A model generated the notes under the pieces. That model saw nothing but the letters and a program-made list of their open reading frames with translations. It did not search any database and was not told the origin of the DNA. Source: Alphaproteobacteria bacterium (GTDB lineage: Bacteria; Pseudomonadota; Alphaproteobacteria; Bin95). From it: a DNA stretch of 64,000 nt. Shown here one piece after another: positions 47,454-48,940 of the stretch. Within the stretch, counting starts at the first letter, position 1, and each line of letters opens with the position of its first letter. The stretch covers positions 1,120,001 to 1,184,000 of the forward strand of contig OZ219787.1 of the NCBI GenBank assembly GCA_964291285.2, given 5' to 3'. Both the position numbers and the translations under genes were made by a program.

Positions 47454-47670
47454 CGCTCCTCCCTTTCCGCTTCGCCGCCTTGCGGCAGGTTGATGGATAC
47501 TTGCGCCGTTTCCGCGCCGCCTGCATGTCCGTGATTACCCCTCAACTTCTCCGTCACGGCCCTCGCTTCCCCCTTGCAGCCTTGTATCGACTTGAACGGA
47601 TTTCACGCCGGTCCGTCCGGCCGGCGGACGCCCTCTCTCTGCGAGCGGCTGCCGGCCGGCGGACGCACCT

Positions 47671-47844
47671 TGTATCTCTCCGGATCGTTGTTGCAGCTAT
47701 AGTCGCAACAGCGGGAGCGGACGGGAGACCGCTAGCACCCAGGTTATGAAGACCGCGGGAGAGCATGGTTCCCCGTCCGCTGTTCCTTTGAACCCGAACA
47801 GTCGCTTGGTCCGCAGTGTGAGACCGCATTTGCAAGGACGGGAC
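47671..47844 (+). ncRNA. Predicted IS110 bridge RNA
   Basis: 5' stem TGTTGC..GCAACA; target loop with GCACC (47735-39) and GGGAGAG (47757-63); donor loop with ACAGTCGCTTG (47798-808) and TGCAAG (47831-36). Confidence 0.8.
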
Positions 47845-48777
47845 ATGGAACGGATATTCGTTGGCATCGACGTGGCGAAGGATCGTCTGGACGTGCATCT
47901 GCGCCCGTCCGGGGAGGCCTTTGCCGTCGCGCGCGACGGCAAAGGCCTGGAAGAGTTGTCGGCGCGCCTGGGCGGGCTGGAGGTTGCCCTCGTGGTGCTG
48001 GAGGCGACGGGCGGCTTCGAGGTCACGGTCGCGGCGGCGCTCTGCGCGGCGGGCCTGCCATTGGCGGTGGTCAACCCGCGCCAGATCCGGGACTTCGCCC
48101 GCGCCACCGGCCGGCTCGCCAAGACCGACGCCCTCGATGCGGCGGCGATCGCACAGTTCGCCGAGGCGGTCCATCCCGAGCCCCGTCCGGTGCCTGACGA
48201 GCAGGCCCGCGCGCTCGCCGAGCTGGTCGCCCGGCGGCGCCAGATCGTCGCGATGATGACCGCGGAGAGAAACCGCAGGAGGCGCCTCACAAGCCGTCGC
48301 ACGATCCGCAGCGTCGACCGCGTGCTCGCCACCCTGCAACGCGAACTCTCCGACCTCGAAACCGAGCTCGGCGATGCGATCCGCAAATCCCCCGCATGGC
48401 GCCAGGCCGAGGACCTCCTCAAAAGCGTTCCCGGGGTCGGTGACGCCACCGCACGAACCCTGATCGCCGATCTCCCCGAACTCGGAACCCTCAGCCGAAG
48501 GCGCATCGCCGCGCTCGTCGGCGTCGCGCCCTTCAACCGCGACAGCGGAACCATGCGCGGAAAGAGAACCATATGGGGAGGACGCGCCAACGTCCGCGCA
48601 ACCCTCTACATGGCTGCCCTCACCGCCTCCAGGCATAACCCAACCCTCAAACGCTTCTATCGCCACCTGATCGCGGAGGGAAAAACCAAAAAGGCTGCCC
48701 TCACCGCCGTCACACGAAAGCTCCTCACAATCCTCAACGCTATCCTCAGAGACCGAACCCCGTGGAAAACAGCTTGA
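47845..48777 (+). CDS. IS110 DEDD recombinase
   Basis: Protein identical to copy 1. Confidence 0.95.
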
Positions 48778-48940
48778 CCGACAACACAGTCGCTCTCCCT
48801 GCGAGCGGCCGCCAGCCGGCCGCCGGGAGAGGCGCGTCTGTACAGGACGGGGAGCGATGCGCGGCGCCCGTGCAACCGCCGCTCCCCGTCTGTGCCGTCA
48901 GGTCATGGTCCCGTTCGCTCCCGCCGGATGCTTCTTTCTA

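Follow-up and report, generated by a model that had tools for sequence, protein, structure and literature searches.

The window analysed here is a 64,000-nt stretch of DNA from Alphaproteobacteria bacterium (GTDB lineage Bacteria; Pseudomonadota; Alphaproteobacteria; Bin95), assembly GCA_964291285.2, contig OZ219787.1, positions 1,120,001 to 1,184,000 of the forward strand, and all positions below are counted from its first letter. It contains two copies of a mobile element. Copy A, 1.1 kb long and on the plus strand, comprises a left end of 174 nt (47671-47844) that carries an RNA, a recombinase gene encoding 310 amino acids (aa), and a right end of just 15 nt plus CT after the stop codon; copy B lies on the minus strand and is split by another insertion sequence. 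With high confidence, the element is an IS621-type insertion sequence of the IS110 group, with a bridge RNA of ∼160 nt in its left end and a single DEDD/Ser recombinase gene. This architecture had been proposed in an earlier reading of the same DNA made without database searches (the sequence-only reading), and every structural claim of that reading was upheld, with covariation in relatives.

When the outermost 27 nt of the left end and 23 nt of the right end were searched for, ends were located only at 47671/48792 on the plus strand and at 23611/21030 on the minus strand, and copies A and B are identical at 1126 of 1126 nt. Copy A reads GGACGCAC-CT-TGTATCTC...ACAGTCG-CT-CTCCCTGCG and copy B GCGCGCAC-CT-[element]-CT-CTCCTGTCC, with CT at both junctions of each copy. 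The element has no terminal inverted repeats, and insertion is centred on a CT common to donor and target. The two sites share CGCAC-CT-CTCC and are otherwise unrelated. Local alignments of the 300-nt flanks of the two copies score only 25 and 18, below the best shuffled scores of 28 and 24, and flanks so unrelated indicate two independent insertions. The flanks of both copies also give directly the donor junction ACAGTCG-CT-TGTAT and the targets CGCGCAC-CT-CTCCT and GACGCAC-CT-CTCCC; junction, targets, and independent insertions had all been deduced correctly in the sequence-only reading.

The recombinase matches PF01548 (E=3.4e-24, 85.8 bits, cutoff 29) and PF02371 (E=4.2e-20, 72.4 bits, cutoff 21.3) and passes the NCBIfam model NF033542, "IS110 family RNA-guided transposase" (222.9 bits, cutoff 140). 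In a phmmer comparison, the IS621 recombinase (PDB 8wt6) matches the protein at E=1.5e-38 over residues 4-307. Catalytic residues were mapped from this alignment, with the chain numbering shifted by +2, and all five residues described as essential in IS621 (D11, E60, D102, D105, and S241; PMC11208158) have counterparts here. Four of these counterparts, D9, D95, D98, and S234, are invariant among 29 relatives with 74-100% identity, and the fifth, E53, is conserved at ≥90%. The database holds at least 8000 protein relatives. The description of the protein as compact holds in that 310 aa falls at the low end of the 300-460 aa quoted for the IS110 family (PMC11208160); it is less apt beside IS621, whose 326 aa exceed it by merely 16.

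Fold and guides of the bridge RNA

Relatives were found as 577 confirmed related stretches in species-representative genomes, mainly assemblies of Alphaproteobacteria and Chloroflexota, of which the best 80 were kept, representing 79 distinct loci. Both element ends were located in 61 of 80 sources (the 79 loci plus the window), the other 19 being unusable with one end absent (mostly short contigs or degenerate left ends). Two more were dropped from the guide analysis, L038 with a replaced target loop and L075 with an ambiguous left boundary, leaving 59 rows, of which 57 are non-redundant, with 49 distinct bridge RNAs. CT terminates all 49 distinct right ends among the relatives.

A minimum free energy of -72.5 kcal/mol (z=-2.99) was obtained for the 175-nt segment 47671-47845, which folds into a 5′ stem-loop, a target-binding loop module (TBL), and a donor-binding loop module (DBL), whose coordinates are collected in Table 1. 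The two loop modules were derived from an alignment of 23 left ends, one from the window and the others from 22 related loci, for which RNAalifold returned an outer stem with an inner hairpin, followed by a second stem with its own hairpin. Three predicted pairs between the two donor guides were removed because both guides contain the core, and 26 pairs were kept. Across the 23 left ends, 94.8% of cells are paired, compared with 77.1% after shuffling (0 of 500 shuffles reach the observed value) and 30-47.5% when the 3′ partners are slid by one to three columns. Double-sided changes occur in 14 of the 26 pairs (10/14 for the outer target-loop stem), so that the fold and covariation analysis of the left end yields a two-module structure with compensatory changes in relatives.

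A covariance model of both modules was then built from 21 relatives, with the window and its closest relative, L001, left out. This model finds exactly two matches in the 64-kb window, one at 47714-47845 (110.8 bits, E=2.2e-23) and the other in copy B. The stem pairing 47716-47730 with 47767-47781, which the sequence-only reading had drawn by inspection, is placed identically by the model as the outer stem of the first module. A match directly upstream of the recombinase gene is present in 78 of the 79 related loci, a count that includes the 21 training rows; matches are weak or partial in L011, L038, and L057, the one in L029 is cut by a contig end, and L039 has none in place.

According to PMC11208160, the left guides of bridge RNAs read the bottom strand and the right guides the top strand, the core takes part in each pairing, and the donor loop works likewise. 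In the window, the proposed segments GCACC (47735-47739) and GGGAGAG (47757-47763) do flank the hairpin at 47742-47754, on the 5′ and 3′ sides of an internal loop, and belong to the left target guide (LTG) and right target guide (RTG). The proposed 11-nt donor match is found as ACAGTCGCTTG at 47798-47808 and begins with the left donor guide (LDG). TGCAAG is likewise present at 47831-47836, where it forms part of a longer right donor guide (RDG), the 9-nt discontiguous ATTTGCAAG, as in IS621. The idea that all four guides are readable is thus backed by covariation in relatives, with the LTG the weakest of the four.

The guide registers were set by mutual information between loop and flank positions, numbered P1 to P14 across the junction with the CT core at P8-P9. 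Target P4-P7 are linked with 47735-47738 in the same sense, and P10-P14 with 47761-47757 as the complement. On the donor side, P3, P5, and P6 are linked with 47800, 47802, and 47803, P11 with 47833, and P14 with 47828. An LTG register shifted by one base, which would suit L001 and L017 better, was ruled out by the placement of P4-P7 at 47735-47738.

Over the 57 rows, the LTG matches the target in 12, 23, 27, 38, 45, 46, 53, 49, and 40 rows from P1 to P9, and the RTG in 53, 54, 50, 46, 49, 53, and 53 rows from P8 to P14. When the 49 unique RNAs are scored, LTG P1-P7 reach 213 of 343 possible matches compared with a shuffle mean of 124.5 (sd 7.7), and RTG P10-P14 reach 218 of 245 compared with 73.0 (sd 8.0), in both cases with 0 of 2000 shuffles attaining the observed value. 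LTG P1-P3 on their own score 56 of 147 versus 37.4 after shuffling, a value attained by 1 of 2000 shuffles. In the window itself, the RTG matches at 5/5 positions in copy A and at 4/5 plus one G·T wobble in copy B.

Donor guides are nearly fixed by comparison. Most of their positions match in 54-57 of 57 rows; counts are lower at LDG P8 (52/57) and LDG P9 (10/57), and RDG P12 forms a wobble in 55 of 57 rows. The window LDG matches at 9/9 positions. Its sequence, ACAGTCGCT, occurs five times in the window compared with 0.29 expected, once in the right end and once in the loop of each copy; the fifth occurrence, at 39787-39795 on the minus strand, was treated as chance, with both an upstream TTGAC and nearby IS110 homology absent. 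Variation in the donor guides is low in the family, with one compensatory case. L043 and L045, both from Chloroflexota, have the donor ACAGTTT-CT-TATAT, in which the change of donor P11 from G to A is accompanied by a compensatory C-to-U change in the RDG.

Each right guide is followed by a handshake guide. The handshake base of the TBL has also changed in compensatory fashion in L043 and L045, in which the LDG retains an A opposite P7 as a natural mismatch, and the handshake base of the DBL shows compensatory changes in L037 and L060. Mutual information likewise connects target P7 with 47837. Neither C47764 nor G47837 of the window can pair with its own cognate P7, an arrangement that is productive in IS621 (PMC11208158).

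The position of the RDG relative to the gene is a further feature of this left end. Here and in the closest relatives of the window, the start codon lies 1 nt past the donor-loop stem, and the only Shine-Dalgarno-like sequence, AAGGA, is formed by the end of the RDG and the handshake bases (47834-47847), so that bridge RNA folding or protein binding could block translation of the recombinase. Most other relatives have a start codon 20-50 nt further downstream.

Table 1. Coordinates of the element, its parts, and the insertion in copy B (window positions)
Feature	Position	Strand	Basis or detail
Copy A, complete IS110-group element including the CT core of each junction (47669-70, 48793-94)	47669..48794	+	Identity with copy B
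Right donor (RD) TGTAT, first bases of the left end	47671..47675	+	Left ends of relatives begin TGTAT (rarely TATAT, TGCAT, TGTAA)
-10-like hexamer TATCTC, left-end part of the predicted junction promoter	47673..47678	+	TATCTT in 31/49, TATCTC in 5/49 distinct end pairs
5′ stem-loop of the bridge RNA	47685..47712	+	Minimum free energy fold; 11 bp, z=-2.65 in the window
TBL module; outer stem 47716-25/47772-81 and 47727-30/47767-71	47716..47781	+	Alignment fold, covariance model
LTG CTAGCACCC, P1-P9, same sense as target top strand	47732..47740	+	Mutual-information register
TBL inner hairpin, GGUU/GACC stem	47742..47754	+	Covariance model
RTG GGGAGAG, complementary to top-strand P14-P8 (CT-CTCCC)	47757..47763	+	P10-P14 complementary in 46-53/57 rows
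TBL handshake guide CA; C47764 complementary to donor P7 (G)	47764..47765	+	54/57 rows
DBL module; outer stem 47792-96/47839-43	47792..47843	+	Alignment fold, covariance model
LDG ACAGTCGCT, equal to the last 9 nt of the right end	47798..47806	+	P1-P7 match in 54-57/57 rows
DBL inner hairpin, GGUC/GACC stem	47808..47825	+	Covariance model, pair controls
RDG ATTTGCAAG, discontiguous	47828..47836	+	A:T14, U:A13, UU unpaired, G·T12 wobble, C:G11, A:T10, A:T9, G:C8
DBL handshake guide GA; G47837 complementary to target P7 (C)	47837..47838	+	55/57 rows
Recombinase gene, 310 aa plus stop	47845..48777	+	DEDD/Ser; D9, E53, D95, D98, S234 align with IS621 D11, E60, D102, D105, S241
-35 hexamer TTGACC in the right end, overlapping the stop codon	48774..48779	+	TTGACN at the same distance from the end in 42/49 distinct end pairs
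Left donor (LD) ACAGTCG, at the close of the right end, next to the CT core	48786..48792	+	
Copy B, both CT cores included, split by another insertion sequence	21028..23613	-	
Target and donor loop modules of copy B	21977..22108	-	Covariance model, 110.4 bits, E=2.8e-23
IS256-family element, 1451 bp, in copy B; duplication GAGCGGACG at 22099-22107 and 23559-23567	22108..23558	.	
IS256-family transposase ORF, 413 aa	22248..23489	+	PF00872 E=1.6e-121; NF033543 346.4 bits, cutoff 150

Predicted junction promoter and competing readings

Joining the two ends of the element gives TTGACC-N17-TATCTC, as the sequence-only reading had proposed for circularisation. The coordinates bear this out, and the split promoter is conserved in relatives, with a 17-nt spacer, as judged from sequence, in 47 of 49 end pairs. 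No promoter-like site was found in the integrated left end, in keeping with the published model of bridge RNA expression from the circle (PMC11208160). The bridge RNA of IS621 is weakly expressed from integrated loci (PMC13626964).

By analogy with IS621, the element would excise as a circle, and the joining of its right end to its left end would place TTGACC 17 nt upstream of TATCTC, so that the bridge RNA would be made mainly from the circle. The target loop would bind xxxGCAC-CT-CTCCC, with the LTG effectively contributing GCAC plus the first core base, and the donor loop would hold the donor junction ACAGTCG-CT-TGTAT through ACAGTCGCT and ATTTGCAAG. Recombinase tetramers would then cut after the CT core and exchange strands by means of S234 and the DEDD site. 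One handshake base per loop may aid strand exchange, C47764 by pairing with donor G7 and G47837 by pairing with target C7.

The IS110-group features that can be judged from sequence are all present, apart from family-wide statistics for the 5′ stem-loop, and several points weigh against the identification as an IS621-type element or its working as described. The 5′ stem-loop, although clear in the window, reaches z<-2 in just 14 of 46 distinct segments of the family, and four rows have almost no such segment. LTG P1 does not covary in the family, its 12 of 57 rows being near chance, and P2-P3 covary weakly. Besides the first core base, the window LTG matches the left target at 4/7 positions in copy A and 5/7 in copy B; opposite the second core position it has C, not U (a CC core guide). 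Most relatives have AAG/CTT on either side of the donor, where the window has AAC ... CTC. TATCTC ends in C instead of the T seen in 31 of 49 relatives, so that the junction promoter may be weak. A near-cognate site, TCTGCAC-CT-CTCCG at 11788-11797 on the minus strand, fits the guides at P4-P13, not at P14, and is unoccupied. Agreement on the donor side is partly built in, because the boundaries of relatives were located by end-motif patterns. Finally, expression, circle formation, catalysis, and reprogrammability are extrapolated from work on IS621, and the labels "recently active" and "programmable" in the sequence-only reading are extrapolations too. A weak LTG with a CC core guide is normal for this clade, in which the median LTG match is 4-5 of 7 and the core guide is CC in 10 and CT in 30 of 49 bridge RNAs.

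It is unlikely that this correctly identified element is no longer mobile, with its copies being relics and its bridge RNA produced below useful amounts. The hexamer TATCTC in place of the family's usual TATCTT and the CC core guide would both suit a decaying element, yet they recur in 5 and 10 of 49 relatives, respectively. Similarly, the integrated context without a promoter-like site, the disruption of copy B by an IS256-family element, and the vacant near-cognate site could all be taken as signs of decay, whereas two copies that are 100% identical over 1126 nt at unrelated sites, an intact open reading frame (ORF) with all five catalytic residues, and ends and guides that are all intact and mutually consistent speak against this reading.

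A second alternative, that the left end is protein-binding or regulatory DNA, that the loop-flank matches arise by chance or from subterminal repeats, and that the protein chooses the target, is very improbable. The donor-side guides are almost invariant in the clade and, taken alone, would pass for conserved terminal repeats; the bridge RNA of this element is predicted from sequence. Against this reading, target-guide positions covary with the flanks across 49 bridge RNAs to a degree that 0 of 2000 shuffles match, stems stay paired through double changes, and handshake positions show compensatory changes; the guide mechanism itself has been demonstrated experimentally for IS621 (PMC11208160, PMC11208158). 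Least probable of all is an origin of the two copies by segmental duplication or recombination, since their location within 27 kb in a region rich in insertion sequences is outweighed by unrelated 300-nt flanks on both sides with scores in the shuffle range, by opposite orientation, and by the CT-bounded placement of each copy at a site that fits the guides.

Insertion sites and the interrupted copy

Only copy A is a complete unit. In copy B, the IS256-family element has landed in the 5′ arm of the target-loop stem, a disruption that the sequence-only reading did not mention, and now lies between the two loop modules on one side and the 5′ stem-loop and -10 box of the junction promoter on the other. 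The IS256 family has Mutator-type transposases and target duplications of typically 8-9 bp, and the 9-bp duplication here, together with imperfect terminal inverted repeats read by eye, fits that family. With these 9 bp duplicated, the target and donor loops and the gene of copy B remain intact, and the nested 2.6-kb unit retains both IS110 ends. Copy B, hit later by the IS256-family element, probably depends on bridge RNA supplied in trans, and it could in principle move as a 2.6-kb unit with its IS256 passenger by using the RNA (and protein) of copy A.

Copy A sits in a GC-rich repeat (47617-47668, 48795-48840) that resembles REP elements. The reconstituted site forms a strong hairpin of -44 kcal/mol over 61 nt, with the target in its 5′ arm; no comparable hairpin was seen at the site of copy B. 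As a family rule, a target within a hairpin was rejected, with an exact inverted CT plus right target within 80 nt downstream present in 4 of 57 rows (0.87 expected), and the target hairpin is a feature of a CTCTCCC-targeting subgroup, not of the family. A 35-bp unit directly upstream of copy A can be aligned to the reconstituted empty site, with three mismatches and one gap in 43 columns. In this comparison, joins with a single CT and with CTCT both score 69 and are not separable, and a join with no CT scores 63.

Upstream of copy A on the minus strand lie an ORF of 147 aa (47010-47453), which by eye is like the helix-turn-helix N-terminal part of a transposase, and an ORF of 474 aa (45276-46700), which by eye is ATPase-like. 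Together with the IS256-family element, these neighbours suggest that the region around copy A is rich in insertion sequences. Among relatives, duplicated or tandem left-end starts, with the preceding target bases, were seen in L031 (2233, 2299), L025 (2283, 2310), and L075 (2262-2301), which suggests nested or repeated insertions at one site.

Known systems and significance

The closest well-studied counterpart is IS621 of Escherichia coli (PDB 8wt6), which has the same two Pfam domains, the same D/E/D/D/S catalytic residues, a long RNA-bearing left end and a very short right end. In its RNA, too, a target loop is followed by a donor loop, with a 5′ stem-loop ahead of them as in the window and with a handshake base after each right guide, and it shares the CT core and a promoter rebuilt across the circle junction. 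As far as residues are named in PMC11208158, IS621 also has the same TGTAT right donor and a discontiguous 9-nt RDG with two flipped-out U and a G·T12 wobble. The sequence-only reading had given the IS621 donor as ACAGTAT-CT-TGTAT; this string was not found as such in the available text of PMC11208158, and the residues named there (C8, T9, T10, G11, T12, A13, T14, and A6, T7) agree with it.

Several differences set the two apart. Donor P6-P7 are CG here and AT in IS621, and the target here is xxxGCAC-CT-CTCCC, compared with ATCAGGC-CT-AC in IS621 (PMC11208160). The host, unlike that of IS621, is a GC-rich bacterium. IS621 has a 9-nt LTG, a 4-nt RTG (G77-G80), and two handshake bases after each right guide (PMC11208158), whereas the RTG here is naturally 7 nt (core plus five) and the LTG pairs effectively at P4-P8, with CC at the core, rather than at P1-P9. 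Durrant et al. noted longer RTGs in some orthologues and restricted one analysis to CT core guides (PMC11208160). As a tentative suggestion, held at somewhat less than even confidence, this clade may divide recognition differently from IS621, with the 7-nt RTG and the C7 handshake carrying most of the specificity and the LTG contributing only about P4-P8 and tolerating a base other than U at the second core position. If so, these orthologues would represent a natural "long-RTG, short-LTG" design with different off-target rules.

Other relatives are known. ISCro4 transposase (PDB 9t56), a second IS110-family recombinase with a solved structure, matches at E=2e-38 over residues 3-307, a likeness of protein sequence alone. 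The nearest annotated DNA relatives are IS110 elements on plasmids of Alphaproteobacteria, with ISMex17-like and ISMno7-like names in Methylorubrum and Methylobacterium records. Of these, 63 plasmid records share 60-80% DNA identity with the element and none exceeds 80%; nine of the 63 cover at least 80% of it, most of the left end included. The IS1111 group shares the recombinase family and the RNA-guided principle (PMC11208160), but its RNA lies in a long right end with subterminal inverted repeats of 7-17 bp. Membership of that group is ruled out by the 17-nt right end of the present element, in which such repeats are absent.

Rfam searches of the element and five related loci returned no family at the gathering score, and Rfam holds no ready-made bridge-RNA model for this clade. 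A sub-threshold match on the element, to sX15 (RF02234) on the minus strand at 47703-47817 (28.1 bits, gathering score 55), leads to a Northern-verified plasmid sRNA reported from Xanthomonas in 2011 (PMC3300014). On the plasmid that defines sX15 (NC_007507.1 114500-119000, locus L080), the Rfam model matches the plus strand at 1879-2037 with 150.9 bits, and the bridge-RNA model gives a full-length match on the opposite strand (63 bits, E=7.6e-14). That match is followed by the opening of an IS110 recombinase gene, an ATG with codons for MNGIGIDV, and the remainder of the gene is lost; by its sequence, the bridge RNA of this locus belongs to a truncated IS110 relic. Table 1 of PMC3300014 lists a further RNA, asX7, on the bridge-RNA strand; it begins 3 nt upstream of the bridge-RNA model match and spans approximately the first 70 nt, the target-loop half. 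The same paper notes 10 homologues in Stenotrophomonas maltophilia K279a. These positions suggest that sX15 is the antisense partner of a bridge RNA of the IS110 type and that asX7 is a piece of that bridge RNA. In the literature searched, no paper was found that treats sX15 together with IS110, and asX7 in the sRNA sense was found only in the 2011 paper.

The biology of the element is ordinary; bridge RNAs are predicted in 85.7% of ISfinder-catalogued IS110 elements (Durrant et al., PMC11208160) and the NCBI family is already named for RNA-guided transposases. Bridge recombinases are under development as programmable genome editors, and each intact orthologue with readable guides is therefore a candidate part. 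This one offers a small recombinase of 310 aa and a naturally extended RTG of 7 nt, and lengthening the RTG of IS621 to seven bases gave higher recombination efficiency in E. coli (PMC11208158). Its two natural insertions also calibrate how much left-guide mismatch is tolerated.

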